From positions 1-64,000 of the forward strand of contig CBDANS010000004.1 of the NCBI GenBank assembly GCA_965197745.1: a DNA stretch of 64,000 nt. Direction: 5' to 3'. The stretch's first letter is position 1, and every line of letters begins with the position of its first letter. The translations under genes and the position numbers were made by a program. The notes beneath the pieces were generated by a model. That model was not told where the DNA came from. It saw only the letters and a list, made by a program, of their open reading frames with translations, and ran no database searches. The DNA is from Opitutales bacterium. GTDB taxonomy: Bacteria; Verrucomicrobiota; Verrucomicrobiia; Opitutales; PNEW01. Shown here piece by piece: positions 1,095 through 29,920 of this stretch.

Positions 1095-1285
1095 GCGGTT
1101 ATAACGATTGTAGCGATGCCAAAGATCGGCGCAATGACTATACGCTTATTGGGTATTTTTTTGGCGGTTGGTCAATATCCAAACCTAACTATTATTTAAT
1201 AAAAGGCGTGGGCAAAAGCGATAGTTGCCAATTGAATTGTTTTTTTTGGCAACTGCCCCTGGAACCCGCATAGATAAAGAGGAAA

Positions 1286-1331
1286 CTCTGCGTCCCGAAC
1301 GCAGCGCTCTACCAGGCTGAGCTACAGCCCG
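1286..1331 (-). pseudogene. 5' fragment (46 nt) of tRNA-Pro(CGG); no T arm or 3' acceptor strand
   Basis: Reverse complement CGGGCTGTAGCTCAGCCTGGTAGAGCGCTGCGTTCGGGACGCAGAG gives a D arm plus anticodon stem CTGCG/CGCAG around loop TTCGGGA. Confidence 0.9.
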
Positions 1332-1400
1332 CTTAATACAGGGTAATACTTATATAACTTTTTAAAGTGTCAACGAAAGCTATTTTTTTGCGGGGTGCTG
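1332..1400 (-). promoter_or_regulatory. tRNA-type sigma70 promoter region, repeated at 2851-2920 (-) and 24290-24357 (+)
   Basis: TAGCTTTCG-TTGACA-CTTTAAAAAGTTA-TATAAG; the other copies read TTGATA or TTAACA with AAAAGTAATATAA. Spacing to -10 is not canonical. Confidence 0.6.
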
Positions 1401-1429
1401 GTATAATTCTTTGATTGCCATTTTCCATA

Positions 1430-1455
1430 ACGGCCACGACGACGCGTGGCCCTCC
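1430..1455. repeat. REP-like palindrome ACGGCCACGACGACGCGTGGCCCTCC
   Basis: GGCCACG/CGTGGCC hairpin; an interrupted copy lies at 3806-3880. Confidence 0.7.
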
Positions 1456-1534
1456 AAATATTCGCATCCTCGCATTTAATCATACATGCATTATCACATC
1501 ATCGCATACACGCTTGATCGCATATCCGCCTAAC

Positions 1535-2782
1535 TCATTCCCTGAACCAATCCGATGGAATCACCCTCATGCGAGTACCATACCCTTCAAAAACTCCGCA
1601 GCCGAGATCGTAGGTGACGGCGACTTCGTCTCCGGTGAAGGCAATAGTCGGATAACATACCCGGAGAAAACCCGGTGCCCTGTGATATCGCTCAGCGGGC
1701 TCCGGCTGAAGGTTGCTGTAGACCTCATAGGGTTGGCAGGCTATCGTCTCCCAAGCGGGTGGAGGAGTGACTATGTTCACATCATCCAGAGCTTCCAGGT
1801 TTTTGATGTTCTCCCAGGTCTCTCCCTCGTCCTTTGAGATTGCACACGAGAGGCGGATCCTGCACTTGGAAGTGACAATCTCCTGGCGGGATGCCTGGCT
1901 CCATACCATCAGTAACTCGCCGGTGGTTGGAATGCGCCGGATAAAGGTGGGTGCGTTGGCCGCGGCTATATGAACCGCCTCCGGCCGGGTCCACGATATT
2001 CCACAGTCAGAAGAATAGGACTTGTAAATCCTACCCATCGCAGCTCGAAGGTGCATAAGCAACCTGCCGTCTCGCAGCTCCACAACGGTCGGCTCCTCCA
2101 GATCCCAGGCAGCACGATTTACACTTATAAATAGCTCACTCAGGCTGCGCTTCCAGGTCTTTCCTTCGTCATCAGAAATATGCACAAAGCTGTAGGAGAA
2201 CGTCGGGGAGGGCACACCGTCGCGTGGATTCCAGTCTTCCGCCTCGCCACCGCTTAGTGGGCTGATCCAACGGAAAGCAGGTGCCAGGAGCCGGCCGGAG
2301 GACAGGACGACAGCATGGCCTGTGCAGCAGCATGAGTGGCTCCTGTCAACAAGGACTGGATCGCACCAGGAGCGTCCGCCATCTTCACTGACTCGATAAT
2401 GCACTATCTTGTGATTCTCTCGACCGGAATGCCCGTATTCCTTGTTACTATCGGAATAAATCATCCCCAGAGCTCCTGACTTCAGCCGCAACACACTGAT
2501 ATGGAAACCGCATATGTCACGGCCGGTGGAGTCCCGTGCCTTCCAGTCTTCCTTCCACGTGCGGCCGGCATCGTCGGACACTTTGAAATGTATGGACTGG
2601 TCCGTGTAGACCTCGCTATAGACGAACCAAAGCTGACCGCTGCGATTTCCCTCCAGAACGAGCGACTCCACATGTCCGGGGATTGCCGGTTCAAGGATAT
2701 CCAATTTGAAAAACCTTTCAACATCGAGCGGTGTTCCCGGGACAATCCCGCCCATTTTATCCTTCCACTCTATATCACGCAT
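1535..2782 (-). CDS. BNR/Asp-box beta-propeller glycoside hydrolase (sialidase-like)
   Basis: Five Asp boxes (SDDAGRTW, SEDGGRSW, SDDEGKTW, SSDCGISW, SKDEGETW), EPTVVELRDGRL and YP motifs, AAGGAGG RBS. Confidence 0.85.
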   Translation of the reverse strand: MRDIEWKDKMGGIVPGTPLDVERFFKLDILEPAIPGHVESLVLEGNRSGQLWFVYSEVYTDQSIHFKVSDDAGRTWKEDWKARDSTGRDICGFHISVLRLKSGALGMIYSDSNKEYGHSGRENHKIVHYRVSEDGGRSWCDPVLVDRSHSCCCTGHAVVLSSGRLLAPAFRWISPLSGGEAEDWNPRDGVPSPTFSYSFVHISDDEGKTWKRSLSELFISVNRAAWDLEEPTVVELRDGRLLMHLRAAMGRIYKSYSSDCGISWTRPEAVHIAAANAPTFIRRIPTTGELLMVWSQASRQEIVTSKCRIRLSCAISKDEGETWENIKNLEALDDVNIVTPPPAWETIACQPYEVYSNLQPEPAERYHRAPGFLRVCYPTIAFTGDEVAVTYDLGCGVFEGYGTRMRVIPSDWFRE

Positions 2783-2820
2783 TTACTTATTCCTCCTTAG
2801 TGAGCGGGCGAAAAAATCTT

Positions 2821-2850
2821 CAGCGCTCTACCAGGCTGAGCTACGCCCTG
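2821..2850 (-). pseudogene. 30-nt 5' tRNA fragment matching the tRNA-Pro fragments, upstream of the sialidase-like gene
   Basis: Reverse complement CAGGGCGTAGCTCAGCCTGGTAGAGCGCTG, preceded by the same promoter region. Confidence 0.8.
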
Positions 2851-2944
2851 TCATTTACAGGATAATACTTATATTACTTTTAGAAGTATCAACTAAAGCT
2901 ATTTTTTCGAGGTGCTGGATGATTTCCAAAGGAGGAAGATTAAT

Positions 2945-3020
2945 GGTGGAACGCGCTGTCCCTAGCGCGTTGGAAAGTGTCGTAGTTGAAGAAGCGTGCT
3001 CGGGACAGCCCGCTCCACCT
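2945..3020. repeat. REP doublet (REPIN-like); related copies at 3411-3445, 4022-4053, 12938-13020, 24157-24263
   Basis: GGTGGAACGCGCTGTCCCTAGCGCGTT ... AAGCGTGCTCGGGACAGCCCGCTCCACC, two inverted units. Confidence 0.85.
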
Positions 3021-3167
3021 TACCCGCACATCTGATAAATGCTTAAGCCAAACAGGCTTGAAGCTGTACAACATCTGTGATTAAAATTAACGCCAGGAAT
3101 TCCGTCCGGCATTGCGAGACAATCCCAGTAATACACCAATCCATAAAAAATTAAAATAGGAGGAGTT

Positions 3168-3409
3168 ATGACACTTGAAGAAATTCGTGCGACCTTAGCC
3201 TGGTGCTCAACCATAAATATAGGATTATTACTCTGGTGGTTTTTATTTATCGCCCTGGCGCATGACTGGGTTTACAGAATGCATTCCAAATGGTTCAATA
3301 TCCCTGTCGAAAAGTTTGATGCTATTCATTATGCAGGGATTTCTTTTTCAAATTAAGCATTTTCCTCTTTAACCTCGTGCCGTATTTCGCCTTGCGTATT
3401 GTGGGGTGA
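3168..3409 (+). pseudogene. Small membrane protein (DUF6868-like), frameshifted in a T run
   Basis: WCSTINIGLLLWWF...HDWVYRMHSKWF...FDAIHYAG. Adding one T near 3345 restores FFKLSIFLFNLVPYFALRIVG*; may be a sequencing error. Confidence 0.7.
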
Positions 3410-3491
3410 TTAAGAAACGTGCTGGGGAACAGACCGCGTCCACCTGTTGATGATACGTTTCAGGATGAGCGGGATAGCCGTTTGGTTTGAA

Positions 3492-3612
3492 TTCCATTTT
3501 GTCATTGCGAGGAGTAGCGCGACGAAGCAATCCAGGGAGCTGACGGTACGCTACAGACATTCCCCTGGATCGCCGCAGTCGGCTTCGCCTCCTTCGCGAT
3601 GACAAAATGGAA
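3492..3612. repeat. Palindromic MITE-like element of the GTCATTGCGAG...GAAGCAATC...CGCGATGAC type
   Basis: Terminal inverted repeat TTCCATTTTGTCATTGCGA / TCGCGATGACAAAATGGAA. Confidence 0.75.
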
Positions 3613-4099
3613 ATCGATATTTGGGCGCTCTTAGCTTGTGTGATTACTATATAATTATTCACCAAATCGTAAAACTTTCACGCTACAGTCCTGTCGCTGC
3701 GAGGTGGCGGCGGATCGGAAAATCTACAATTTAAACCGCCAGCAATTCTCTGGGCTCACGCATCTCCAGCAATAAATAGATTGCTGTTTTCCCAATTAAT
3801 CAGTTACGGCCACGATCTGCCTTCGTCCCGTCTCGCAGTCGCGGAAGGACTACGGCATGACAGGCAACGCGTGGCCCTCCGGAAAATATGATTATGATGA
3901 CGCGATTCATTACCTTTATTAAGGGTAAAATAATGGAGGGACGCGCAGAGCCTGTCGGCCATAGCCCAACGGGCGACGGTTGATCGCGTCCGTGTTTATA
4001 TTATAATTAAATCAGGAGATTAAGAAGCGTGCTAGGGACAGCCCGCTCCACCTAATCGCATATACGCATACACGCACATTTCCTTCCACGCATTACCTC

Positions 4100-6565
4100 T
4101 TAATTCCCCTCCGGTTCGAGGATGGTCTCCAGTGAATTGTTTTCCGCGTGGACTCTTACTCCACTAATAATAATCGAGGGTATTTTTAGATTAAGCGTCG
4201 CAGCAATGGGAGTGATTACGGTCAAAACGGGACCGACCGGAACTTCAGCGATAAAATCAAAATTGAGCATTCCATCAGCGGTGGGATTACGGAAATTATA
4301 ATCAACAAGCATAGGGTTACTCCAACCGCTTGTCGTGACCATGCCGTCAACCATTATGCTCAAGGTTTCGGGATCGTCCGGGTCAAGTGATAACGCTACC
4401 TTATTCACTTCCAGTATTTTTCTAAACACAGGTATGCTTATAAACTCTCCTGATGAATTTTCAAAAGAGGTATTTAAATTTAAGGCCTGAAGGCTTGTAA
4501 GATCCGATTTAAAATTATCCTGAGAAATGATGGAACTGAATCCTGCATTGGCGGATGATGACGCCACGACCACATTTGCCTCGTTGCTTTGAAGCAGATC
4601 GCCCCCGGCAATTATTAGAGCTCCATTATACTGAGCAAGAGAAGACCCTTCTCCAATTACCAATTGAGGCATTGCATTTCCCGATGCGTCGATATCCCCA
4701 ACTATTACTCTCACCGAAACCGGCACACCCGGCGCCTTCAATCCCACATCTCCCGTCGAATTATTAAATCGGGTGTTCGCGCAGAGGATCCCGCCAAAAC
4801 CTGTGGAGTTGACAATCTCTAACAAGGCAACATCAGCCACTGCATCATATATTTCTCCTTCAGGAAATAAGTTCTGGTTAACAGCATTGATCGATCCCAC
4901 TGTAAAAATGCTTAAGAAAGTATTCTCGTCTGCACCTTCTACCTCTATCGTCGGTAAACCTTTAACATAACTTACCGATGGCTGATTGTATTTAACCGGA
5001 GGTGCAGCAGCTTCGAATGTGTCAGAATCAAGGGTTACGGTTACGATTGCATTACCGGAAAATTCCACCTGCACAATATCATCATTGATGTCGAGAAATG
5101 AGGCGCGCGTGATTTCATTTTCATCGGTGCGCAGCGTTACGCTTTGTCCCGTTAATAAAACCTGATTGTATACGTTACCGTTGGAGTGGATAATGTTTTC
5201 TCCAACAGTATCTCCTGAACCATCGAGGACTAAATCTACAGGATCAAGGGGTGGATCTCCATTTGTGGTGTCGTTTGTGAGACTAAACACGTAAACGGAA
5301 CCGGAATCGGTATTGTTATCATCGTCTAAGGGTGTTCCTATTACGACCGTGTCACCACTGATTTCAGCAGAAAAGGCAAACCAGTCACGCTCCGCGCCTT
5401 CGCTCGCCGTCAGTTTAAACACCTCACCCCAGTTGTCACTACCGCCTTCATTGCGTTTATAGATATAAGCCGAACCGGAATCCGTTCCGTTATCATCGTC
5501 GAAAGTAGCGCTGACAGCAACGGTGTCACCGTTGATTTCTACCCATCCCCCTAACCAGTCATCGGTCGTGCCGTCACTCGCGATCAGTTTTGTCACCTCG
5601 CCCCAATTGTTATCACCACCTGCATCGCGCTCAAAAATATAGGCCGATCCGGAATCGATACCGTTATCATCGTCTAAATTGGCACCGACCACCAATATAT
5701 CTCCGCTGATCTCTACGTGATTGCCAAATACATCATCTGCCGTGTTGTCACTGGCCAACAGCTTGGTAACTTCTCCCCAATTATCAACCCCGTCCGCGTC
5801 GCGTTCAAAAACATAGGCTGATCCGGAATTGTGGCCATTGTCATCATTCCACTGCGCTCCCACCACAACCGTGTCTCCGTTAATCGCCACTTCATAACCA
5901 AACTTATCTCCCTCAGCATTATCACTGGCGATCAGTTTAGCGACCTCACCCCAGTTGTCGACACCCCCCGCGTCGCGTTCAAAGATGTAAGCCGAGCCGG
6001 AATCAATTCCATTCGCGTCGTCTAAATTTGCGCTGACTGCCACGGTATCTCCACTGATCGCTAAAGACCATCCAAACTGATCACCTGCTTCACTATCGCT
6101 CGCAGTCAGTTTAGCGACCTCACCCCAGTTATCATTACCACCGGCGTTGCGCTCAAAAATATATGCGGAGCCGGAATCGGTGCCATTATCATCATCTAAA
6201 AATGCGCCAACCGCTAAGGTATTATTATCAAGGGCTACATAAATACCAAAATTGTCACCGATTGAGCCATCACTCGCGATCAGTTTAGCTGCTTCCCCCC
6301 AATTGTCGGTTCCCCCCTGGTGGCGATAAAATATATATACGGAACCTGAATTAATATCATTGTCATTGTCTAAAGGCGCACCGACCGCCAGTGTGTTTTC
6401 GCTGATTGCCAGGGAGCGTCCGAACAAGTCTAGCGCTTCGCCATCACTGGCCAGTATTTTGACGCTTTCATTAATGATCACCGGCTGAGCGACAAGGATG
6501 TTTGACCGGATCGCCGTCGGGGCAATGAATAAAAGGAGTAATAAAATGTAAATGCGTGAAGTCAT
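4100..6565 (-). CDS. Secreted FG-GAP repeat beta-propeller protein with the shared ~270-aa domain and a C-terminal extension
   Basis: Signal peptide from MTSRIYILLL; about 7 repeats of KL.ASD....D.FG...VGA..DDDNG.DSGSAYIF; then DLVLDGSGDTVGENIIHSNGNVYNQV. Confidence 0.9.
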   Translation of the reverse strand: MTSRIYILLLLLFIAPTAIRSNILVAQPVIINESVKILASDGEALDLFGRSLAISENTLAVGAPLDNDNDINSGSVYIFYRHQGGTDNWGEAAKLIASDGSIGDNFGIYVALDNNTLAVGAFLDDDNGTDSGSAYIFERNAGGNDNWGEVAKLTASDSEAGDQFGWSLAISGDTVAVSANLDDANGIDSGSAYIFERDAGGVDNWGEVAKLIASDNAEGDKFGYEVAINGDTVVVGAQWNDDNGHNSGSAYVFERDADGVDNWGEVTKLLASDNTADDVFGNHVEISGDILVVGANLDDDNGIDSGSAYIFERDAGGDNNWGEVTKLIASDGTTDDWLGGWVEINGDTVAVSATFDDDNGTDSGSAYIYKRNEGGSDNWGEVFKLTASEGAERDWFAFSAEISGDTVVIGTPLDDDNNTDSGSVYVFSLTNDTTNGDPPLDPVDLVLDGSGDTVGENIIHSNGNVYNQVLLTGQSVTLRTDENEITRASFLDINDDIVQVEFSGNAIVTVTLDSDTFEAAAPPVKYNQPSVSYVKGLPTIEVEGADENTFLSIFTVGSINAVNQNLFPEGEIYDAVADVALLEIVNSTGFGGILCANTRFNNSTGDVGLKAPGVPVSVRVIVGDIDASGNAMPQLVIGEGSSLAQYNGALIIAGGDLLQSNEANVVVASSSANAGFSSIISQDNFKSDLTSLQALNLNTSFENSSGEFISIPVFRKILEVNKVALSLDPDDPETLSIMVDGMVTTSGWSNPMLVDYNFRNPTADGMLNFDFIAEVPVGPVLTVITPIAATLNLKIPSIIISGVRVHAENNSLETILEPEGN

Positions 6566-6743
6566 ATTTCCCAAGCACTGAACAATGCCATCCCCTAAAT
6601 TTACGCCGGGTTTATGGGCGGTCAAGGGCATCAGCGATAAGGTTATCGCCGTTTAGTAATAGAGAGAGGGCAACAAAACAAGGGTGAAGTAAATTGTGCT
6701 CAAACATCCTGAGCGACATTCTTAAATACCGAACCTTACAAGG

Positions 6744-7121
6744 TTATTCTATATCCTTAGTTCCTGCTTGTATAAAACGATCAGCAATTGTGTTGTACTT
6801 ATTCGTCGTTTGCTCGAGCCGTTCCGCCAGTTCATTCATGATAAGTTTGGTCATCCTCGGACTCGATTCGACAATCTCGTTAATGCTGTTGCCTACGAGG
6901 GAAAGTTGACAGTCCGTTTTCGCAACAACACTACAGGTCCTTGGTTTCTCTAAAATGTCGCTGATTTCGCCTATTATACTGGCTGGGGTATCCATAATAG
7001 TAATTACTTTATCCCCCTTGCGAATTTCTAAAGTCCCGCTTTCTAAAATAAAAAGACGGTTGTCCTTGTCTCCTTCCTTGATAAGAACTTGGCCTGCATT
7101 ACAAATAATTTGTTCATTCAT
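6744..7121 (-). CDS. Stand-alone cyclic nucleotide-binding domain protein
   Basis: GQVLIKEGD...LFILESG...GEIS...PRTCSVVA cNMP signature; start taken at MNEQII. Confidence 0.85.
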   Translation of the reverse strand: MNEQIICNAGQVLIKEGDKDNRLFILESGTLEIRKGDKVITIMDTPASIIGEISDILEKPRTCSVVAKTDCQLSLVGNSINEIVESSPRMTKLIMNELAERLEQTTNKYNTIADRFIQAGTKDIE

Positions 7122-7329
7122 ATTATAAATATTTTCCCTCAATCACATTATTTGCATTATTTGTATCGTCTAATATTAGTATTTTGTCATTTAACTTAAA
7201 AATCAAGATGAGGAATGCCGCAAATGACTTTCCCTCAAACACAGTGCTAATACCTCCTGTGAGCGAAGTCAATGCCACAACTTCCATAATTATTGTGTGG
7301 CGAAGAAATAAGATGAAGATGACAAAACT

Positions 7330-8553
7330 ATGAACAACCCTGTAGCTATAAACTGGCGAACACCAATAATTGTCATCATTGCCGGATGCCTGATTGCGAT
7401 GATTGGATTTGGGGTACGGTCCGTTTTTGGACTTTTTCTTGAGCCCATGACCGTTGCCAAGGGTTGGGACCGCGAAACATTTGCACTCGCCATGGCAATT
7501 CAGAATCTAATCTGGGGAGCTTTTATGCCATTAGCTGGCGCAATCGCTGACCGACACGGACCTGTGCGCGTGATCTTCGTGGGATCTCTTATTTATGCAT
7601 GTGGTATCTGGGGCATGGCGGAGGCAACGGCCCCTCTGGCTCTGCACCTTTTTGGTGGATTACTGATGGGACTGGGTGTGGCATTCACCTCTTTTTCACT
7701 GGTACTCGCAGCCATGGCTCGTGTTGTTGGCCCGGCAAAACGCTCGCTGGCTCTTGGTCTGGGGACAGCCGCAGGATCGTTGGGCCAGGTTGTATTTTCA
7801 CCGATCAGTCAAGGTTTCATCGGAGCCTATGGTTGGAAAATGACTCTGTTGCTGCTCGCCGCATCGGCCTTAATTATAATTCCCCTTGCCACCGCCTTAC
7901 CGGGTAGTCCTTCCCGGTCCCGGGATGATGAGATAAATGATCAGAGCATTCGGGAAGCATTGAAAGAGGCTGTTAGTCACCACGGTTATATCCTGCTCAC
8001 ATTTGGGTTTTTTGTATGCGGATTTCATGTTGCCTTTATTACCGTGCACTTCCCCGCCTACATAATGGACATCGGGTTACCCTCGCAGGTAGGAGCCTAT
8101 GCTATTGCCATCATCGGCCTGTTCAATATTATCGGCGCATTTCTGTCGGGTGTGGCCGGTCAGAGGTGGAGCAAAAAATCCAGCCTCAGTCTCATCTATT
8201 TTACGAGGGCAGTGGTCATCAGCCTATTTTTGCTGGCACCTGACAGCGAGATCAGCGTTTACTTGTTTGCCGGCGCCATGGGTGTTCTCTGGCTTTCCAC
8301 GGTACCATTGACTACGGGAATTGTTGCTCAAGTATTCGGTGTTCGTTACATGGCCACCCTTTTCGGCATTGTCTTTTTCAGTCACCAGGTAGGCAGTTTT
8401 TTCGGTATATGGCTCGGAGGACGAATACATGATGTGACAGGATCATACGACAACATGTGGTTGGCAGGGGTCGCGCTGGGAATAGGAGCTGCGATCATAC
8501 ATTTACCCATTGACGAAAGAGCGCTGTCACGGCTGAAAACCGAAGAGGCCTGA
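7330..8553 (+). CDS. MFS transporter
   Basis: 407 aa with about 12 hydrophobic segments; motif A GAIADRHGP. Confidence 0.92.
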   Translation: MNNPVAINWRTPIIVIIAGCLIAMIGFGVRSVFGLFLEPMTVAKGWDRETFALAMAIQNLIWGAFMPLAGAIADRHGPVRVIFVGSLIYACGIWGMAEATAPLALHLFGGLLMGLGVAFTSFSLVLAAMARVVGPAKRSLALGLGTAAGSLGQVVFSPISQGFIGAYGWKMTLLLLAASALIIIPLATALPGSPSRSRDDEINDQSIREALKEAVSHHGYILLTFGFFVCGFHVAFITVHFPAYIMDIGLPSQVGAYAIAIIGLFNIIGAFLSGVAGQRWSKKSSLSLIYFTRAVVISLFLLAPDSEISVYLFAGAMGVLWLSTVPLTTGIVAQVFGVRYMATLFGIVFFSHQVGSFFGIWLGGRIHDVTGSYDNMWLAGVALGIGAAIIHLPIDERALSRLKTEEA

Positions 8554-8705
8554 TTGCTCCACTCGAAGAACCGGCGCTATCGCGACTGCTTACCTGACAT
8601 ATTACGGTTGTTATTGACGCGGTAAGCTCTAATTTGAGTTAATCTATATAAGCCAAGGTTTTAATCGTGGGAGAAATCACCCCCAGCCATTAAGTAAGAA
8701 ATTCC

Positions 8706-9791
8706 ATGAAACAGATGGTTACAACTCAAGAGCCAACCGCACTCTCACTTATCGACTGCGACGTGCACAATTATCCCAATTCAATCGATGAGTTAAAAAC
8801 CTATTTACCGGAGAGGTGGATAGAATACATCACAAAGTCGGGGTTCAAGAGCCCACCGGGTCCGGTATACCCTAAGGGATTTGAATTTGCGGCGCGGAGA
8901 GACGCCTGGCCACCCAGCGGTAAATTACCCGGTAGCGATCCGGATTTTGTGAAAGAACAATTGCTCGACACCTGGGGTATTGATAGGGCCATTCTGAATC
9001 CCTTATACGGGATGTCTGCAGTGCACAACATCGATTTTGCAAACGCGCTCATGCGTGCCGTCAACGACTGGACCGCTGAAATCTGGTTGGGCTCGGATGA
9101 GCGCTGGCGTGGATCAATCGTGGTCAATGTGCAAGATCCTCAAAGCGCGGCTGAAGAGATTAAAAGGGTGGCTAAAAATCCCCGCTTTGTTCAGGTTTTA
9201 TTACTAGTGCGTTCACATGCGCCCTACGGTAGACGTGAATTCCACCCAATATTTCAAGCGGCGAGCGAGTTGAATTTACCGATCGGTATTCATTTTGGCG
9301 GTAGTGGAAACCCCATAACAGCTTGTGGTTGGCCATCGTATTACATCGAAGACCACACGGCTATGGCGCAGGCCTTTCAGGCTCAGGTTGTCAGCCTCGT
9401 CTGTGAGGGTGTGTTCGAGATATTTCCTCAGACTCGAATAGTTATCATTGAGGGGGGCTTTGCTTGGCTACCACCGCTGATGTGGCGTCTCGATAAGAAC
9501 TACAGGGGACTGCGCAACGAAGTGCCGTGGCTCACAAAATTACCCAGTGAGTACATTACAGAGCACTTCCGCGCAACGACACAGCCCATGGAGGAGCCGT
9601 CAAATCCCGAACACTTGATGCAGATTATAGAGATGATCGGACGTGATGATTTTCTGCTGTTCGCAACGGATTACCCTCACTGGGATTTTGATGCCCCGAA
9701 CCGTGCCATCCCCGGCATCGTGTCCGGTGAATTACGCCGGAGCATAATGTCATGCAACGCCGCGGACCTCTATGAATTCGAGCGAGCTTGA
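8706..9791 (+). CDS. Amidohydrolase_2 family metallo-hydrolase
   Basis: IDCDVH, IGIH, EGGFAW and FATDYPHWD motifs. Confidence 0.92.
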
Positions 9792-10137
9792 TATCGGAGC
9801 TGCGAGCGATTTCGTTCAGGGCAAACCAAAACGTGTTGAAGTAAACGGTAATGCTTTTGTGATCGTACGACAGATAGACGAGATTTACGCTTTACGCGAT
9901 ATCTGTCCCCACCAGGGAGCGAGGCTCTCAAACGGTAGCGTGGGCGGAACGACTCATCATTGCCTGCCGGGTGAAAGTATTCCCTTTGGATCCAGGGGAC
10001 AGATCCTGGTATGCCCGTGGCATGGTTGGGAGTATAACCTGTCTACCGGCCAGTCAATTATTGATCCAGAGCGCATACGGGTTCGTCGTTATCCTGTGCG
10101 TGTAGAGGACGAGCGAATCCTCATTGATCTCGGCTGA
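9772..10137 (+). CDS. Rieske [2Fe-2S] ferredoxin
   Basis: CPHQG and CPWHG motifs; overlaps the amidohydrolase stop. Confidence 0.92.
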
Positions 10138-10148
10138 ATCAATTCCTC

Positions 10149-12743: not shown

Positions 12744-13119
12744 ACAGCCGCCGTCGCTCCGCTATGGCGTGCCATGGTGAACAGTGAAGAGTGAAGAAAG
12801 GATGCATAATATCCAATGATAGTAACAAGGTCGACTTTCCCAATCCTTGAGGGTGGTTTGTAATATCAATATGAAATAAAGCTTCGTCTTCGTCTGGGTC
12901 CACGTCTGCGTCCACTCATTTATTTACTAATACATGTAGGTGGAGCGGGCTGTCCCTAGCACGCTTCTTTTTAATAAACAGAATTTACTCTTAACGCGCT
13001 AGGGACAGCGCGTTCCACCTTGATAGTTAATATATATATCCTGAGACGAAGACGAAGAGGAAATCGAAGAATATGCCTATGATCCTATAACGGTAAACAT
13101 GCTCTTTATTCTACCACGG

Positions 13120-15037: not shown

Positions 15038-15060
15038 GTTATTGTAATTTTAATTGTAAT

Positions 15061-16212: not shown

Positions 16213-16223
16213 AGTAAATTTAC

Positions 16224-17435
16224 ATGCAAAACAAGAATGATACCCCAGGGAAAGCTATTTCAGCTTATCAGTTTAAATCTAAAAAAACGGGCAAACCATT
16301 CTTGGCTATTGAAGTAAAATGGGGACCACTAGAGCTAAAAGTACCAATATTAAGAAAAGGTGAAATCCCCTTACCCGTTCCTGAGCTAGGGGCGGTACTT
16401 CACGGTTTTCAATTTACCAATACTTCTTTGAAAATAGAAAAGCTGAATAATCCTGAGAATTTTAACGAAGTTATCTGTCCCTACCGTGTAAATGAAATTA
16501 CCTATACAGATAACGAAACATATTGCAGAAGAAGCTTTTACATCGAAGGTGGAAAACAAAATGCTGAATATTTTAAGGTAATATTAAAAAACTTAGTAGA
16601 AGATCATGCTGTTGATGGACTTGTGAGTAATAAATTTCAACAGCTATTACGACGAAAGATAAGAATTAAAGATAAAGACAAAGTCCAAAATATCATAAGA
16701 AAGTTTTACAAAAACCGGCAAAAATTTTGCAACCAATTTGATGGAGTAACATCATTACCAAAATATGTTTATGTAGAATTGAAGGAAGAATACCTTAAGG
16801 AACAACAAAAGTTGCTAAGGCAATATTTCCCCGATTTTAAACCCAAGGATTATGATACTATTATAGAGTCCATGGATGAGGATGATGAACACGAAAAACC
16901 AGAAATCTTAATTACTGAAAAGACTTTGGGGGATGGTACCCCTATTACCATTGAATCTAGACCAGTTGACCATCACTGCAATCGAAAAGAAGTGGCCACA
17001 GCTTTACAGCGTAAGGAATATCCTAATCTGTACAATGCCCTTGACGGTCTAAGTAGAGCAAAAGATGAAACTGAAAAAAAGAAATGGGCAGAAAAAGCGC
17101 GTCGGGGACTTATCGTAGATTTTAAAAAAAATACTGGTGTTCAACTCGATGCAGAAGGCGCGAGAGAACTTTTAAAAGATGAAACTTTCATTAGAATGCT
17201 TAACGAGGTCAATGAAAAGCCAGGTAGGAAGCAAAATAATGTGAACTGGGAATTAATTCTAAACTGGATAAAAAAAGAATACTTTAAAATGAATGAAAAG
17301 CAATTGGCAGCGGCGATCTTTAAAGCTACAGGAGTAAAATTAAAAGGAAAAACGATTTCAAGGCGTGCACGTAAACTTGGTTTAGAAACCGCATTAAAAA
17401 GAGGGCGGCCTGAAAAAAAAGAGGAACAATTTTAA
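16224..17435 (+). CDS. Hypothetical protein, possible C-terminal HTH
   Basis: 403-aa Lys-rich ORF directly after the integrase; ends ...QLAAAIF...TISRRARKLGL...KRGRP. Confidence 0.7.
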   Translation: MQNKNDTPGKAISAYQFKSKKTGKPFLAIEVKWGPLELKVPILRKGEIPLPVPELGAVLHGFQFTNTSLKIEKLNNPENFNEVICPYRVNEITYTDNETYCRRSFYIEGGKQNAEYFKVILKNLVEDHAVDGLVSNKFQQLLRRKIRIKDKDKVQNIIRKFYKNRQKFCNQFDGVTSLPKYVYVELKEEYLKEQQKLLRQYFPDFKPKDYDTIIESMDEDDEHEKPEILITEKTLGDGTPITIESRPVDHHCNRKEVATALQRKEYPNLYNALDGLSRAKDETEKKKWAEKARRGLIVDFKKNTGVQLDAEGARELLKDETFIRMLNEVNEKPGRKQNNVNWELILNWIKKEYFKMNEKQLAAAIFKATGVKLKGKTISRRARKLGLETALKRGRPEKKEEQF

Positions 17436-17469
17436 TTCGGCCAGAGGTAAAAAAACCTTGGCCGAATTA
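17433..17469. promoter_or_regulatory. Inverted repeat (operator or terminator)
   Basis: TAATTCGGCCA-GAGGTAAAAAAACCT-TGGCCGAATTA, perfect 11-bp arms. Confidence 0.6.
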
Positions 17470-17497
17470 CCCAACATAATGACGCAGATCATCTATA

Positions 17498-17860
17498 GTG
17501 GTCTGCGAAATGAAAACCTTAGAAAAAACTCCGACTAACGGCGGAAAAAAGACCGTTAAAGAAGAGGCGGTAGCTATGACCGAGACTGCCTCGAATAATC
17601 GCCCTGAATGGATTCGGTTACCACAACCGAGTCGTCGTTGTCCTCACACTGGACTTTCACGGTCCACGTTAAACGAGCTAACGATACCCGGCCCAGCCAA
17701 TGACAATCGACCACCCGTAAAAAGTGTCGTTCTCAAAAAACGCGGTGCCATGCGGGGTATTCGGTTGATCAGCTATGACAGCTTGATGGCCTACTTAGAA
17801 TCCCTCTCGGATAAAAATAATGTGCCCTCATCTAAGAAGAAAAAGGGGGGATATCAATGA
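17498..17860 (+). CDS. Excisionase-like small DNA-binding protein
   Basis: WIRLP...CPHTGLSRSTLNEL...RGIRLISYDSLMAYL; lies between integrase and primase. Confidence 0.6.
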   Translation: MVCEMKTLEKTPTNGGKKTVKEEAVAMTETASNNRPEWIRLPQPSRRCPHTGLSRSTLNELTIPGPANDNRPPVKSVVLKKRGAMRGIRLISYDSLMAYLESLSDKNNVPSSKKKKGGYQ

Positions 17861-18468
17861 ATGATACATGCCGACGAAAAAGCCCTCCCGCTGGCAGGCG
17901 AAAAGGGCATAAATCAACTAAAACTAAAAAAAGTAATATCACAAAAATAACACCTGTCAAGGTTCAGGAAATATATTATTTATTGAGGTCAGAAGCGGTA
18001 CTATTGCCTGTTCCATATAAGAAAAAAGGGTGTCGCAAATCCGAGTGGCAGAAAACATCATCGAAAGATACGCAGACTACGGGATGGCAACGTGAACTTA
18101 ACAAGGGGAATATTGCGGTTCTTACTGGTCAACCATCAAACGGTGTCGTAGCCATAGACTTTGACAGTGATGAGAGCCTCAAGGAATTCCTTGCCCTTAA
18201 TCCTGATTTAACCGAAAGCACGCGAACAAAAGGTAAGCGCGGTGCCGTTATATGGATACGAGTCAAGGGTGATTATCCTGATCTTCGCATCTTTAAAATA
18301 GAAGACAATATTTTCGCGGAATGGAAGTCGACGGGAGGGCAGCAGAATATAAGTGGCATCCACCCCGAAGGGATTCCATATCGTTTCCATGTTATAAGCG
18401 ATTTAAGTAGATATCTGTTTAATAAAACAAACCACACTAAAAATCTAAGCAGTTTATATAGTAAATAA
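17857..18468 (+). CDS. Bifunctional primase/polymerase N-terminal domain, probably truncated
   Basis: GNIAVLTG...VAIDFD...T.GKRG...GIHPEGIPYRF; no helicase domain follows. Confidence 0.8.
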   Translation: MNDTCRRKSPPAGRRKGHKSTKTKKSNITKITPVKVQEIYYLLRSEAVLLPVPYKKKGCRKSEWQKTSSKDTQTTGWQRELNKGNIAVLTGQPSNGVVAIDFDSDESLKEFLALNPDLTESTRTKGKRGAVIWIRVKGDYPDLRIFKIEDNIFAEWKSTGGQQNISGIHPEGIPYRFHVISDLSRYLFNKTNHTKNLSSLYSK

Positions 18469-18564
18469 AGATAATAAATATGGGACTAAGCTGACGGGAC
18501 GAAAAGTTACGTCTCCCGATCTGCATTTCCCAAATCTTTAAATCGGGAGTTACCTGCACGAGAA

Positions 18565-19290
18565 ATGAATAAAAAGAGCAATCATAAAGTTGCTTCAGCA
18601 AAGGAAAGGATTAGGAAAAGGGACCCAGAGCTATTTGAACCGGGTGCTGATAAGACAGGTATTGCCAGTGACTACATAAGTGACAATAGGAGCCTAAAAC
18701 GACGTCAGCGGGTGGTTATTTACTGCCGGGTTTCCGGGCATGTTCAAGAACGTTCCCAAAACCTCAGCGATCAGGGTGAGAATTTAAAGAATGAGTTAAA
18801 GCAGCGGGGATTTGTAGTTCTTGAGATAATATCAGAAGTAGCTTCTGGCTGGAAGGAAGACCGTGATGGCCTTTTGCGTGCCGTAGAAATTGCTCACGAA
18901 AACGATGCCGTTGTAGTTGCAGAGTCTGTTACACGATTTATCCGTAGCAGGGATTACAACAGTAAGACAAACCGGAATGCGTTACCCACCGTTGCAGAGT
19001 ATCGACGTTTACAACGTGATACGCAGGGTGTGAAACTTGCGACATTAGTTGCTCCTGATGCCACACCAGAAGAGATAAGATCTTATGAGACTAAGCGAGG
19101 TAAGAAATCAAAAGGCAATCCAGGTGGTCGTCCTAAGAAACGTGATCCTGGATACAAAAAAAGGGAAAGACAGATGTATTTGCCAATAGTCTTAGAACGG
19201 TATAAACAGAACAAGAATATTGCAGCCATTGCTAGGAGTGTGAATTTAAAATACGACACTGTGTATAGCTGGATTGTGAAATTTTCTTAA
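18565..19290 (+). CDS. Serine recombinase (resolvase family)
   Basis: YCRVS, EVASG, ESVTRFIRS and a C-terminal HTH. Confidence 0.85.
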   Translation: MNKKSNHKVASAKERIRKRDPELFEPGADKTGIASDYISDNRSLKRRQRVVIYCRVSGHVQERSQNLSDQGENLKNELKQRGFVVLEIISEVASGWKEDRDGLLRAVEIAHENDAVVVAESVTRFIRSRDYNSKTNRNALPTVAEYRRLQRDTQGVKLATLVAPDATPEEIRSYETKRGKKSKGNPGGRPKKRDPGYKKRERQMYLPIVLERYKQNKNIAAIARSVNLKYDTVYSWIVKFS

Positions 19291-19445
19291 ATCTTTATTT
19301 TTTATGTCCGTTAAGATATTTAATATTTTTATCATGTTGGGTTCTAAATGGATGCATTACTATGTTAGCTGCTATAATTTGAAAGAAAGCGTTATATGCA
19401 GAGTACTTATATATAATGTATAGTAGTGTGTAAGTTAGATGTAAT

Positions 19446-19757
19446 AGTTTTTTGGATAGATTAAGTATGATGTTGGATCCGATAAATGATGTATTGGTGA
19501 AAAGGATTAAAGGTATACATCAAATGGTGAATGCTGCAGTTTTTTGAATAGATTAAATATGATGTTAGATTCGATAAGTGATGTAGATAAAGATGATGTA
19601 TTGGTGAAAAGGATTAAAGGTATACATCAAATGGTGGACGTTGCAGTTTTTTGGATAGATTAAATATGATGTTAGATTCGATAAGTGATGTAGATAAAGA
19701 TGATGTATTGGTGAAAAGGATTATAATTGAAAAGGATTAAAGCTATACATCAAATGG
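19446..19757. repeat. Three tandem imperfect repeats (units start 19446, 19538, 19645)
   Basis: AGTTTTTTG.ATAGATTAA.TATGATGTT...GTATTGGTGAAAAGGATTAAAG.TATACATCAAATGG three times. Confidence 0.9.
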
Positions 19758-21553
19758 AGGGTGTAGGGTTAATAAGGGGATAAGATAAAAAGGTTATAAG
19801 ATTTTTATCTTATTCTAGATTTATATCGGCTTTAATGCTTAAGGTTCGTTAACGAGAACGTTAATCTGATTTCTTAAAGTTAAATTTTACCATCTTAGTT
19901 TTTTATTCTTAAGTCAGGATTTAGTGATAACTTAATCACTTTTTTATTACTTGCTTCAGAACCGTTTCAAGGATTAAGGAAGGGCCAGAGGATGAACTTT
20001 CTAATTAAGATGCTGGATTCCTCACACGACTTTGAATTTGAGGTTTTAGTCCCTCCGGGAACTAAGTTGCGCAGGGTGCAGACCCGAACGAAGAATCCCG
20101 GCTTGAGGACCCACTCGATGAGGATTTCCCCACCTTTATGTGATAGTTATTAATAAGACAGAATTAATGTATAATGGTCCTTGATATTAGCGTTATCATT
20201 TATAAGTTTTCCCTGCTAATCCCTTCCGGGATCCATTGACTTTAGAGGGATTTCTCATCCTTCTACGGCCATAAGGTTTTTAGCCATTGAAGGAAATAAA
20301 TGAGAAAGAGACTTCGGAATTGCCCATTATGCCTAATCTCAAAGAGAAGCTCGACCCCAAAGATAAGTGGAGATAACCATGACCTTGGCACATTGTTTTT
20401 TCTCATCAATATCTTGTTTAAAGTAGAGCATAAAAAGTCCCCTATCAATATCTCAAATTTTGCCCATCCATTTACCCTGAAATAAAAAGGAAGTGATCAG
20501 TTAAGTAATAAGTTCCTTTTTAGGATAGGGATTGGATGTGAACACGCTTTAAAAAACAGTACATGGTTTTGTAATAAGAGACTTGGTTAGCATAGATGTT
20601 ACCCAGTATTACATTTTCCTTTTCCATTGGGTTAAAGCGGTCATAATGCCCGCTTTTTACTTCCCCAGAGCAGACCAGAAATATATGGAAATTTACGAGG
20701 GTGCGGAATGGTCGGGAGGGTCGTGCCCGGCGACCTGTTGACAACGTCGTCGAAAGCAGTCCTCAAAGACATTAACTTGGGAAAATTTTTCCCCAGGGGA
20801 GCATTAATTAAAAAATTGAACACCGTTAATTTGACGAACCCGTAATAATAAGTAGGTGAAGGGCACACCATACTTTTTCTAATTTGGTGTAACGCAGAAA
20901 CGACCCGGACTGATATTTGAATTAAAGACACGAGTTAAAAAAGGATTAACAATGAATGATTCACCAAAGATTATTGAGGATTGCATCAGGGAGCTCGCGG
21001 AGCGTGAGGTTATCGAGGAGACAAAGGACGGTGTGACCGTGAGGCTAAGCAGGACGGAGCGTTTGAGGATAGAATCCTCGGGGAGAGTTATTCCTGATCC
21101 ATGGCGACGCTATAACTCTCACCGAAGTTTTGGGGGTGATTAACCGTGAGGTCCCGGTCACCTGGGACAAAATCCCACAAGGTAGCAAACTCGGAGAATT
21201 CGCCACACACGGCCTTTTGACCTCGAAATTGAAGGATATAACGCTTTCTATAAGAAAACGTTACGTTGAGGGCATAGATCGACGCTCCAAGGCCTCAATG
21301 CGACACAACCCCACCTCAAAAATAACATCCACCGGGACCAGCCCCAAAAGAGGTAGTCTCAAAGCAATGATGCATAGGCGTAGCGATCTCCACAGGGTAA
21401 AAGCAAAGAGAGAGCTCGGAGTTAGGATAAGGATACCGGGACATCAAAACCGATGCGGCATGACAGCGGAAAATAAAGAGGTGGTGAAGGGGTTTAGAGG
21501 ATAGTGGAGCATAACAACCTCAAGCAGGTATGATGCAACCAGGGACCCGGAGG

Positions 21554-21611
21554 CCTTTCTAGGTTACCAAGACTAACTTTTCAAGGGGCTCAGTTTCCGT
21601 GGTCTCGACCA
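21554..21611 (-). mobile_element. Solo left end of the IS3-family element at 41787-43008
   Basis: CCTTTCTAGGTTACC.AGACTAACTTTTCAAG...GTGGTC.CGACCA matches ~42951-43008. Confidence 0.8.
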
Positions 21612-21793
21612 CCCTTGAAGAGTATAAAAATGCTTTCAACCACGTGATCTAATTAAAAGAACATTCATATTCCTCGCGTGTCATTTTACTGATCCCTTTT
21701 AATAATTCGATTCTTAGTGATTATATGATTGAAATAGACCATTAGATCCATTCCCTTTTTTATCAGCCATATCAACTGAGACCAGGAGAGTAA

Positions 21794-24022
21794 ATGAACC
21801 TAAAAAAGCTTGACACTGTAACCTCGGTATTGCTGACCATTCCCTTATTTATTCAAGCCGCGCCTCAAGACCAGGAAATATTTCTCGATTTTGAAAATGT
21901 CGAAGGAACTGGAGATTTTAGACTCGGCGAACCACCGAATGACATCCAGTTTCTCGGCTTTACGATAGAGACATTAGAAGATCCGACACTTTTACACTCA
22001 GGATCGAAAGCTTTAACTCTTGGGCCCGGCCAGGAAGGAAGAATCATAAGCAACCGAGGGATTAATACGATTGAATTTTACGCAGCTGAATCAACAGGCG
22101 GTGGCAAAATCGAGATCAGAGGTTTAGTTAATTCAGAAGGAGGAGCAGCCGGTGGATTACCTGAAGTTATTACCGTAATATCAGAAAATGGTGAGGTTGA
22201 AGGACTGCCGGCCAACATCAGCCCTGACGCCAACCCCCCATTGCAAAGCTTTGTCGCTGACAGTGGCAATTTTCTTGATGGAACTGACCTGGAATTTATT
22301 GAAGGGATAAAAGATGTGAAGATCCTCAATGTTTCAGGTAAATTTTCTATCGATGATCTTGGCTACACACTCACAGATAAGCCTTCTAATAATAGCGTCT
22401 TTACCCGGTTTGAGGAATTTGGAGTCGGTGATGGTTTATCGGGTCCTATTACAATGGGAACATCTCCCAATTCAGCCACCTTTGATGGGGGCCAGATTGT
22501 AGCCTCTGTTTCGTGTGCATGTGGATTAATTTACTCGCAATCGCAAGGTTATGCGATTCGAAATGGAGAGGAATTCACGGTCACCTTTGAAACCCCGGCT
22601 TATGAAGTAGATTTTTACGCACAGAATGTAGTCAGAGTACAGTTGCAAGATCCCGATGGCTCATTTGAAGTCTACGATACTAATAATAACCTGATCGGGA
22701 CCTTCACTAATTTTGAATCGAGTCTTAATCCGCAATTTAAACCCAATTTTTTTACCCTCAACGCGGTGGAATTGGGAGCGCCAGGCGGCATTGGCAGGCT
22801 TGTTTTTAAGGACGATCCCGATTTGAACGATGATGTATTCAGCCATTCAGGTATAGACGACTTTGGCTTTACGCCGATCGGCGCTCTGGGAACTGGCGGG
22901 GCCCCTCCGGTAGAAGGCCCGTCCATTACCACCCAGCCGGCGAGCCAGGAAGTGCCAGCCGGCACCTCGGTTACCGTATCGGTCACCGCCAGTGGCGACG
23001 GCCTTACTTACCAGTGGTATCTTGGTAACAGTGGCGACACCTCTAACCCCGTAGACGGGGCCACCACCAGCACCTTTAACAAAGGAGAAGTAAACGAGAA
23101 TTCGAGTTGCTGGGTGCGGGTAAGCCAGGTATCGGGAGCTAGTGTGGATAGTGATGCCGCCGTCATCACCGTCGCAGCCCCGGCCGTGCCCCTCGTGCTT
23201 GACGGAACAGGTGATATCGCCGGGGAGAACATCCAGCATCCTAATGGTAACGTCTTCGACCAAATCTTACTCACCGGAGAAACCATCCAGTTACAGGCCA
23301 GACCGAATCAGATTACTCGCGTCTCCTTTATGGATGAAACCGAGGACATTGTGCAGGTTGAGTTCTCTGGCGCAGGATCCTTTACCGTAAACCTGGACGC
23401 TGCCACCTTCCTGCCACCGGCCATACCCCCGCGCTATAACCAGTCCGTAGAGTATGTGACGGGCAAGCCGAGTGTGGTGATCGATGGAGCGGACTCCAGT
23501 TCCTTCTTCAGCATCTTCACCGTGGGAAGGATCAACGCCGTAAACCAGGCGCTCTTCCCCGAGGGACAGGTCTATGACGCCCAAGCAGACGTCACTCTCG
23601 TCGAAGTTGTAAATTCCACCGGCATAGGCGGCATGCAGCTGTCGAACACCGCTTTCAGCGGAAGCACCGGTAAGGTTGGCGTTGATGCGCGCGGAGTACC
23701 GATCGCGGTACGCTTAACCGTTGGCGACATTGATGCCGATGGTGATGCCGTTCCCCACTTACTCTTTGGCTCCGGTTCTTTCACAGTGCCAGCTGGAAAC
23801 CCCGGCTTGCGAATCACCGGTGGTGACCTCTTGCAGTCAAACGATGCTGCGATAGTAGTAGCCGAGAGTGGATCGACAACAACCGGGTTTGACACCCTGA
23901 TTACGCAGAACAACTTCAAGTCCGACAACACCCCTCAACCTACACTGAGTATTGATGCCACCTTCGCCAATGAAGATGGTGATGCAATTGAGGTGACGAC
24001 CGAAGAGTTGACGATAGAGTGA
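21794..24022 (+). CDS. Secreted protein: two tandem beta-rich domains + Ig-like domain + shared C-terminal domain
   Basis: Signal peptide; Ig motif PSITTQPASQ...LTYQWY; PLVLDGTGDIAGENIQHPNGNVFDQ. Confidence 0.92.
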   Translation: MNLKKLDTVTSVLLTIPLFIQAAPQDQEIFLDFENVEGTGDFRLGEPPNDIQFLGFTIETLEDPTLLHSGSKALTLGPGQEGRIISNRGINTIEFYAAESTGGGKIEIRGLVNSEGGAAGGLPEVITVISENGEVEGLPANISPDANPPLQSFVADSGNFLDGTDLEFIEGIKDVKILNVSGKFSIDDLGYTLTDKPSNNSVFTRFEEFGVGDGLSGPITMGTSPNSATFDGGQIVASVSCACGLIYSQSQGYAIRNGEEFTVTFETPAYEVDFYAQNVVRVQLQDPDGSFEVYDTNNNLIGTFTNFESSLNPQFKPNFFTLNAVELGAPGGIGRLVFKDDPDLNDDVFSHSGIDDFGFTPIGALGTGGAPPVEGPSITTQPASQEVPAGTSVTVSVTASGDGLTYQWYLGNSGDTSNPVDGATTSTFNKGEVNENSSCWVRVSQVSGASVDSDAAVITVAAPAVPLVLDGTGDIAGENIQHPNGNVFDQILLTGETIQLQARPNQITRVSFMDETEDIVQVEFSGAGSFTVNLDAATFLPPAIPPRYNQSVEYVTGKPSVVIDGADSSSFFSIFTVGRINAVNQALFPEGQVYDAQADVTLVEVVNSTGIGGMQLSNTAFSGSTGKVGVDARGVPIAVRLTVGDIDADGDAVPHLLFGSGSFTVPAGNPGLRITGGDLLQSNDAAIVVAESGSTTTGFDTLITQNNFKSDNTPQPTLSIDATFANEDGDAIEVTTEELTIE

Positions 24023-24357
24023 GCCGATTTCAGATTGCAGATAGCGGATTGATATAGGATGCAAGATAGTGAACAGTTGAGAAAGAACCAAGGGAACTGA
24101 TCTTCGTCTTCGTCTACCTCCTCGTCTTCGTCCATCCAGATTCTTACATAATTATTAGGTGGTACGGGCTGCCTGTCAGCCATAGCCTTGGCGAAGGTTG
24201 GTCCCTAGCACGCTTCTTCAATTACGACATTCTCAAACACGCTGGAAACAGCGTCTCCCACTCTTTATAGTCCTTATTTGGATGATACCATCATGCGCTA
24301 AATATTTAGCTTTCGTTAACACCTCAAAAAGTAATATAAAATGTTCTTTTATTTTTC

Positions 24358-24405
24358 CGGGGTGTAGCTCAGCCTGGTAGAGCGCTGCGTTCGGGACGCA
24401 GAGGT
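24358..24405 (+). pseudogene. 5' fragment (48 nt) of tRNA-Pro(CGG)
   Basis: CGGGGTGTAGCTCAGCCTGGTAGAGCGCTGCGTTCGGGACGCAGAGGT followed by non-tRNA sequence. Confidence 0.9.
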
Positions 24406-24589
24406 ACCCCTTTATTCATGCGGGTTCCAAGGGCAGTTGCCAAAAAAAGCAGGATTTTTGCAACTATCACCTTTACCGATAATTAATAAATGGTTACTTA
24501 AGTATGACTAACCAACCCGCCATAACCGTACACATAAAGCTTGTTGTCCTTACGCTGATCTTTAGCATCCCTCTAATCGTTAAAACAGC

Positions 24590-26815: not shown

Positions 26816-27123
26816 AGCTTAAAGGGGTATGTAAAATACACAACCCTCTCAATCGATAATCCATAAGCCTGTATGCGGCGGGGGTGTTTTCTCCCAAAGG
26901 GGTATTCAATTGTAAATCAAATATAGCTTGGTATTCAGGAGACATAGAGAGCAATTCCTCTCTATTTATTTAAACTTTCATTAGGTTCTTGTTTACTTAA
27001 GACACACGACTGTATCAAGATCAGCCTTCCTTTGCGGTCAGCCCTGAACTAACTGCTTCCAACCTCTCGAAGATTCCCTCGATTACGTTTTCCTGAACCC
27101 TCTCTCATTAGTCCTCCGGCTTT

Positions 27124-29703: not shown

Positions 29704-29920
29704 CGAACAGAGAGAGAATTCAGTGCGACCAACGGAGGTGGTCCTGCTTGGCGCTGAAGACCGCTCCTCGATAGGTCTGCCGGTATTAATCCAATAGTGT
29801 GTATGTAAATGATACGATTTCATCCTTTACTAGATAAGGTAGTGGCTCCAGACTGAAGGTCCAGTTCCCTAACGAGCATTCGCCGTGTCCGGCTTAATCC
29901 AGCTAAATATTGATGGCATT

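Follow-up and report, generated by a model that had tools for sequence, protein, structure and literature searches.

Copies of a tRNA-Pro(CGG) promoter and pseudo-tRNA ahead of surface-protein and enzyme genes in an Opitutales genome

Partial copies of tRNA genes in bacteria are normally read as the 3'-end scars of integrated elements. Islands inserted by integrases carry the 3' part of a tRNA, with the crossover in the anticodon loop, the T loop or at the 3' end, and leave attachment (att) scars, and the tyrT locus of E. coli contains repeats that each end in the last 19 nucleotides (nt) of the tRNA. Other described arrangements that come close to the one treated here are the E. coli tRNA-mRNA operon thrU-tyrU-glyT-thrT-tufB and the expression-site systems for variable surface proteins, such as vsa and vlhA in Mycoplasma or pilE/pilS in Neisseria. 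One preprint deals with the linkage of tRNA and tuf genes, including a co-transcription test in Neisseria, and with pseudo-tRNAs predicted in bacterial 5' untranslated regions (UTRs), the latter as occurrences only (bioRxiv 10.1101/2021.11.03.467129). Here we describe a module, made of an upstream promoter block (~57 nt) followed by the 5' part of tRNA-Pro(CGG), that stands ahead of surface-protein and enzyme genes in the window, the 64,000 nt at the start of contig C4 (CBDANS010000004.1) of a metagenome-assembled genome (MAG) of the order Opitutales (Verrucomicrobiota), assembled in seven contigs and called G000 below.

For comparison we used two sister genomes (G001 and G002), which together with G000 make up the census of copies, and G003, from the same family. 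The copies are named A, B, and C in the window, D and E on contig C7 of G000, M1 and E1 in G001, and 102k, 745k, 748k, 749k, 760k, and 897k in G002. We consider the module a real feature and its co-option as a promoter plausible, and we favour, with reasonable though not strong confidence, a reading in which a duplicated tRNA-Pro(CGG) family was spread by recombination and would survive where the tRNA promoter feeds a gene via read-through.

Module copies in the window and their tRNA-Pro(CGG) origin

A preliminary description of this DNA had reported three diverged copies of one promoter region, each followed by a 5' tRNA fragment, and all three are confirmed. A 24-nt tRNA core, GTAGCTCAGCCTGGTAGAGCGCTG, occurs at 1302-1325 (minus strand), 2821-2844 (minus), and 24364-24387 (plus), with 0/100 shuffles containing any match (0 expected). 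The block of ~57 nt upstream is common to A, B, and C and carries TTGACA (A), TTGATA (B), or TTAACA (C), each exactly 42 nt ahead of the tRNA start. Every copy lies, as first described, on the same strand as and just upstream of a coding sequence (CDS), two of them surface-protein paralogs and the third the sialidase-like gene, with the ATG 191 nt (A), 38 nt (B), and 184 nt (C) beyond the tRNA fragment.

Copy A, on the minus strand, has its promoter block (-57 to -1) at 1332..1388, with TTGACA at 1373-1368 and 2/57 differences from the block of the intact G002 tRNA. It continues with a pseudo-tRNA 5' part at 1286..1331, comprising the acceptor 5' strand, the D arm and the anticodon arm with CGG, 45/46 identical to the intact G002 tRNA. 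In the alignments the next stretch (1222..1285) holds an insertion of ~15 nt, a decayed T arm and 3' end (1269-1248) and a hairpin AGTTGCCAA..TTGGCAACT (1253-1222), after which the remaining leader runs to the ATG (1095..1221) and is found also in other family members, some without the tRNA part. Gene A (3..1094, minus) is the 5' part of a ~740-aa secreted paralog with Ig-like domains, truncated by the contig start; it is 93% identical to G002 C2:746917-748295, and its positions 1-1019 are 98% identical to G001.

Copy B, also on the minus strand, combines a promoter block at 2851..2907 (TTGATA at 2892-2887; 11/57 differences from the intact G002 promoter) with only the first 30 nt of the pseudo-tRNA (2821..2850), which end within the anticodon stem and are 24/24 identical to the intact G002 tRNA over nt 7-30 (2844-2821). 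The gene behind it, at 1535..2782 (minus), is BNR/sialidase-like (Pfam BNR_2, E = 3.6e-25). On the plus strand, copy C has its own promoter block (24301..24357; TTAACA at 24316-24321; 20/57 differences from the intact G002 promoter) and a pseudo-tRNA 5' part (24358..24405) that is 48/48 identical to the intact G002 tRNA-Pro(CGG). The alignment places the insertion, the decayed 3' part (24420-24441), the hairpin (24436-24464) and the leader to the ATG in 24406..24589, a region bridged by Logan contigs. Gene C (24590..26815, plus) encodes a 741-aa secreted Ig-like-domain paralog (Pfam Ig_7) and is 99.4% identical to its G001 counterpart, which has no module ahead.

Of four runs, three (X1, X2, and X4, which belong to different studies) have Logan contigs that span the passage from tRNA fragment through leader to gene start, the X2 contig covering 24205-24613; one among these runs may be the source sample. 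Since the junction from fragment to ATG is present in DNA contigs from the runs of three studies, it is not an assembly artefact. Metagenome contigs scanned by pattern gave 0 matches to the junction and 0 to the decayed 3' part.

The origin of the module is evident from the intact tRNA-Pro(CGG) genes of G001 and G002, whose first 44-48 nt and ~57 nt upstream match it, so that the module corresponds to the tRNA gene's own promoter together with the 5' part of the tRNA. The motif TTGAC is found within -55..-35 in 14/44 tRNA genes of G000, against 1.6% of random sites, and at -42 in the module. This placement, together with the shared upstream block, identifies the block as the native tRNA promoter region, which is what the preliminary description had taken it to be.

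The window copies themselves are not functional tRNAs. ARAGORN found 0 tRNAs in the window, and Rfam 15 gave 0 matches at gathering score over its whole length, cis-regulatory RNA families included. With the Rfam tRNA model (RF00005) relaxed over the region 900-3200, the sole match was copy A at full length, with 21.6 bits (cut-off 29) and an aberrant T arm. Copies A and C possess both the D arm and the anticodon arm with CGG, copy B retains the D arm only, and none of them has the paired acceptor stem and T arm with an above-cut-off score expected of a working tRNA.

It had also been stated that only the 5' half was copied and that no 3' half was found in the window, a view that does not hold well for the long copies. 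Past nt ~47 these depart from the tRNA into TTCCCCTTTAYCTAT, and then into a piece GCGGGTTYC....CAGTTGCC that matches the tRNA T arm and 3' acceptor strand at 16-17/22 positions and is placed in the same way by MAFFT; the score of this alignment was reached by 20-160 of 5000 shuffles, depending on the copy. The long copies are thus probably whole decayed tRNA genes with a U-rich insertion of ~15 nt after nt ~47. Downstream of the decayed 3' part come the conserved hairpin and then the leader. Two other readings of the region were dropped after inspection by eye. A leader peptide starting at the conserved ATG of CTATGCGGG would have no Shine-Dalgarno sequence and its changes are mostly non-synonymous (no formal test was made), and nothing convincing emerged for the TTGGCAAC palindrome as a sigma-54 site or operator.

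Gene context, tRNA array and island scar

The genome-wide search for tRNAs and fragment copies that the preliminary description called for bore out the lack of an intact tRNA in the window, but it raised the number of copies in G000 from three to five, D and E being on C7, and located no intact tRNA-Pro(CGG) in the assembly. Over the three genomes the census amounts to 13 copies, 7 of them ahead of co-oriented genes and 6 orphans. Besides A, B, and C, the gene-linked ones are M1, in front of a paralog in G001, and three copies in G002: 748k and 745k, in front of paralogs orthologous to A (93%) and C (87%), respectively, and 760k, a full module in front of a five-gene operon (ADC-like, M20 peptidase, ADC-like, copper amine oxidase, BNR) whose last gene is the ortholog of the BNR gene behind copy B. 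The module thus precedes unrelated genes and deserves the term portable that was first applied to it.

Among the orphans, D (C7 1111702-1111877, minus) has promoter and tRNA part, and E (C7 1099996-1100077, plus) extends from the anticodon arm onward. E, E1, and 102k are mutually orthologous, decayed and without promoter; 749k has no promoter either, and 897k is of full length with 6/44 changes. We discarded the idea of an 11.7-kb inversion bounded by D and E, E being an old orphan orthologous in three genomes and D lying behind a paralog and facing a convergent gene.

The distribution of promoters over these copies bears directly on whether they matter to the genes behind them. They might be inert by-products of rearrangement, with promoter and RNA irrelevant downstream; that 6/13 copies are orphans, that the proximal leader is shared by some family members devoid of a module, and that conversion alone could hold the tRNA piece identical all agree with this. 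Yet the -35 region and an invariant AAAAGTAATATAA block are kept in all seven gene-linked copies (promoter kept in 7/7), the promoter is missing in 4/6 orphans, and it was retained through the deletion that formed copy B (see below), all of which makes inert debris quite unlikely in our view.

The paralog family to which genes A and C belong is large, with ~30 full paralogs (~740 aa, secreted, with Ig-like domains) and ~70 DNA matches in G001 and ~84 DNA matches in G000, and four members are found in the window (3-1094, 13120-14490, 21794-24022, and 24590-26815). Most of the paralogs have an ALPQDLEVF motif after the signal peptide, and no Pfam or NCBIfam family spans the whole protein. The module is carried by just 1-2 paralogs per genome.

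An intact tRNA-Pro(CGG) is present at the matching place in 12/12 checked genomes from other families of the order, as well as in G003, and among 401 genomes of the order the leader is confined to G000, G001, and G002, save three matches of 25-28 nt at E~1e-4. In G001 a methyltransferase gene is followed by the module and a paralog, then by two decayed 3' ends of paralogs, and finally by the promoter, the intact tRNA and the PhyH gene. The left end of the window is collinear with this locus (FG-GAP gene, methyltransferase remnant, module, paralog). The methyltransferase gene that stands before the first module in G001 and G002 is reduced to a remnant of ~430 nt at window 2982-3409.

ARAGORN identified 44 tRNAs in the whole seven-contig assembly of G000, Pro(TGG) and Pro(GGG) included, and no intact Pro(CGG). 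Contig C4 begins inside gene A, the remainder of which is absent from the assembly. On contig C6, positions 1503079-1503103 are the last 25 nt of tRNA-Pro(CGG), 100% identical to G001 nt 53-77, at 1.2 kb from a PhyH ortholog (93%) that is syntenic with the gene downstream of the intact G001 tRNA. As C4 starts inside gene A and the tRNA scar on the PhyH side lies on C6, the intact G000 gene would be expected to lie in the stretch missing between the end of C6 and C4:1. The 25-nt tRNA end abuts the end of an AT-rich element, and this element end recurs at C5:~435080-435332 beside another tRNA-like 3' end. C6:1503079-1503103 is an ordinary 3'-type island scar, separate from the modules; no integrase was seen within the 14.7 kb from the scar to the contig end.

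Spread of the copies, conservation of the tRNA piece and proposed promoter use

The existence of a true island scar of the same tRNA is relevant to another proposal of the preliminary description, namely that the copies are 5'-type att sites used to capture genes. In such a scheme an integrase would recombine in the 5' part of the tRNA, and the captured block would bring or displace the promoter and 5' half. Modules and intact tRNA do lie on one strand in G001 and G002, with the intact gene last, and the left boundary of the block is similar across copies. However, the right-hand junctions fall at three places, after nt 30 (B), after nt ~47 (the long copies), and after GCGGGTTTCGGGTC (D). No integrase was found among the 17 open reading frames (ORFs), other than paralog genes, that were scanned in the G001 locus (7 kb) and the G002 array (20 kb), and the integrase of the window (15061-16212) belongs to a 6.7-kb element of its own (14942-21613), with no modules at its ends. 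Furthermore, the ordinary island at tRNA-Pro(CGG) used the last 25 nt, and copy B has a different explanation. The amine-oxidase gene preceding the BNR ortholog in G002 ends ..GCGCTCAAGA and B reads ..GAGCGCTGAAGA, with a GCGCT microhomology at the junction. This comparison explains copy B by a deletion at the GCGCT microhomology, in which four operon genes that G002 retains were lost and the promoter was left, 38 nt plus the 30-nt fragment ahead of the ATG. Capture of genes at 5'-type att sites is therefore highly improbable.

The long copies and their genes have a mosaic structure. Nearest neighbours shift from segment to segment: the flank of C has 3/34 differences from 748k and 17/36 from 745k, the segment after the tRNA piece has 4/68 differences between 745k and 760k, and the gene bodies pair in the opposite way to the flanks, C with 745k (87%) and A with 748k (93%). 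G000 and G001 share gene bodies at 98-99% identity whose 5' ends differ, with breakpoints near codon 60 and near the ALPQDLEVF motif. Such changes of neighbour by segment, together with mosaic gene heads, are what one would expect if the copies had recombined repeatedly with one another and with the real gene. The copies would have arisen by duplication in a fast-changing array beside the real tRNA gene, where unequal or ectopic recombination and deletion then acted repeatedly. On a larger scale, comparison of window 24558-32000 and of 1-20000 shows G000 to be a mosaic with respect to G001 and G002, in which stretches of 99% identity adjoin others of 70-87%; this mosaicism suggests recent exchange between lineages.

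Mosaic heads and bodies also raise the possibility of a variable expression site, in which promoter heads are moved among paralogs by recombination or inversion at the tRNA piece or at the conserved 5' end of the genes, thereby switching the paralog that is expressed. The very large paralog family with few module-bearing members, the different heads on near-identical gene bodies in G000 and G001, the flank and gene-body combinations that differ between G000 and G002, and the inverted position of A and C relative to each other, 23 kb apart, would all suit such a system. We consider it very unlikely nonetheless, for the differences are between genomes and not inside one population, and no joint at a module appears in the Logan contigs of the four runs, although contigs hide rare forms. 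Moreover, an enzyme operon is also headed by a module, and no recombinase is tied to the modules, the serine-recombinase-like gene at 18565-19290 lying inside the separate mobile element. Gene A was also considered as a duplicative copy of a silent donor, an idea we set aside because G000 has no second copy of it more than 83% identical and hence no sign of duplicative conversion. Loose Logan ends at 24404/24405 were examined as module joints and rejected; they continue into T arms unlike those of G001 and G002 and are read as the tRNA-Pro of other organisms. It is equally improbable that tRNA promoter and exact 5' piece make up a portable head which, being kept identical at several loci, acts as a recombination handle and lets the cell re-assign a strong growth-coupled promoter among dozens of surface-protein paralogs and other genes, in a manner resembling antigenic variation.

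The tRNA piece itself is remarkably constant. In the six long gene-linked copies, tRNA nt 1-44 have 5/264 differences from the intact gene and the promoter has 87/342, and in the orphans D and 897k the respective values are 9/88 and 24/114. Within two orthologous pairs there are 1/88 differences in the tRNA piece, 31/115 in the promoter, 26/136 in the next segment and 60/248 in the rest of the leader. The gene-linked fragment therefore decays far more slowly than its flanks, and the equal decay that the preliminary description had named as an outcome contrary to co-option was not seen.

These numbers have two possible explanations. The first is a functional RNA leader, in which the exact 5' part of the tRNA (D arm and anticodon arm) is selected in the transcript, be it to stabilise the 5' end, to direct processing or to bind a tRNA-binding protein. 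It accounts for the contrast within the orthologous pairs, for the start of divergence directly upstream of tRNA nt 1 in every copy, and for the faster decay of the orphans D and 897k. The structure of the piece speaks against it, and we judge it unlikely: RNAalifold detected no covariation in 8 copies (covariation term +0.21), though the hairpins are conserved, and every substitution in the anticodon stem breaks a pair, uncompensated, which argues against selection on RNA structure, though selection of another kind may act. In addition, the acceptor and T arms, which RNase P requires, are absent, and only 30 nt are left in B. The second is gene conversion with the intact gene, which fits the loops being conserved as much as the stems better than structural selection does. 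Three copies with 0/44 differences carry a tRNA-like GGT at nt 45-47 (748k even through nt 52), the others having GTT, GTA, or ATT, and we read them as conversion tracts from the intact gene. Conversion would most simply keep the tRNA piece nearly identical, with selection on the piece also possible.

As to what the copies do, they probably act as borrowed promoters for surface-protein and enzyme genes. Transcription from the tRNA promoter would begin a few nt upstream of the pseudo-tRNA and read through into the downstream gene to give a pseudo-tRNA-mRNA co-transcript. Read-through is proposed on the grounds that there is no clear terminator after the pseudo-tRNA; a scan of 24200-24620 found no terminator-like site. 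Copies that feed a gene would then keep their promoter, and those that do not would lose it or decay.

Several observations weigh against the recombination and read-through that we favour. The anticodon hairpin of copy A and its U-rich insertion were flagged as terminator-like, albeit weakly, and some transcripts could stop there. A simple sigma-70 scan does not call the promoter block, because of its weak -10. In some family members, for example the G001 ortholog of gene C, the proximal leader stands with no module ahead of it, so that the genes may possess their own promoters. Statistical support for homology of the 3' part is modest, conversion and selection are indistinguishable with these data, and, the copies being few and related, Fisher tests and their p-values overstate independence. 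A look for RNA runs that contain window 23800-25200 yielded none. Both promoter use and read-through are what we infer from the sequence.

Other features of the window lie apart from the modules. The 6.7-kb mobile element contains, besides its tyrosine integrase and the serine-recombinase-like gene, a PrimPol gene (17857-18468) and a 107-nt tandem repeat in 2.2 copies at 19486-19723, and it has several copies in G001 with 87-94% identity. Two very abundant intergenic repeat families, an element of ~80 nt starting AGCACGCTTCTTCAA and a palindrome of ~30 nt (GGCCACG..CGTGGCC), occur at ~2945-3025 (minus), 12938-13019, 24201-24280, and ~1425-1460; both have dozens of copies genome-wide and are often just upstream of modules. 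Finally, two genes (10149-12743 and 27124-29823) are fusions of a NanM-like Kelch propeller with a sodium:solute symporter and, together with the BNR gene, suggest the use of sialic acid.

Comparison with described systems

In the literature, the coverage of which was partial and is no proof of absence, we found no description of a native tRNA promoter plus tRNA 5' part duplicated before protein genes; the survey of pseudo-tRNAs in 5' UTRs was the one relevant precedent. If the promoter is active, the module would be a natural re-use of a stable-RNA promoter for surface proteins and an enzyme operon, tying their expression to the control of tRNA synthesis. The locus also calls for caution in annotation, as a missing tRNA accompanied by tRNA fragments can mark a recombination-prone array and not the boundary of an island.

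The likeness to tRNA-mRNA operons of the tufB type lies in the succession of a stable-RNA promoter, tRNA sequence and a protein gene on the same strand. Here, however, the tRNA is a pseudogene, the unit has been duplicated before several unrelated genes, and co-transcription is proposed. With the survey of pseudo-tRNAs in 5' UTRs the modules share tRNA-like remnants between a promoter region and a CDS, but the accessible part of that survey has no counterpart to the duplication of the native promoter, the family of copies or the contrast in conservation seen here.

Expression-site systems such as vsa, vlhA, and pilE/pilS resemble this locus in their large paralog family, with few copies at a strong promoter, and in their mosaic heads and bodies. 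They differ in that here no switching within a population is seen (in contigs), no dedicated recombinase or duplication from silent donors was found, and enzyme genes are headed too. At tyrT, too, copies of part of a tRNA spread through unequal recombination at the tRNA locus, although unlike the modules the repeats there involve the 3' end, have no promoter and do not stand ahead of other genes.

The att scars of integrase islands share with the modules the presence of partial tRNA copies near the real gene, and one true scar of tRNA-Pro(CGG) does exist in G000, on contig C6. The modules instead copy the promoter and the 5' part (nt 1-30 or 1-48), with variable junctions and no adjacent integrase among the scanned ORFs. 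It is thus the opposite part of the tRNA, promoter plus 5' half, that has spread here ahead of protein genes, near-unchanged while its surroundings diverge by 20-30%.

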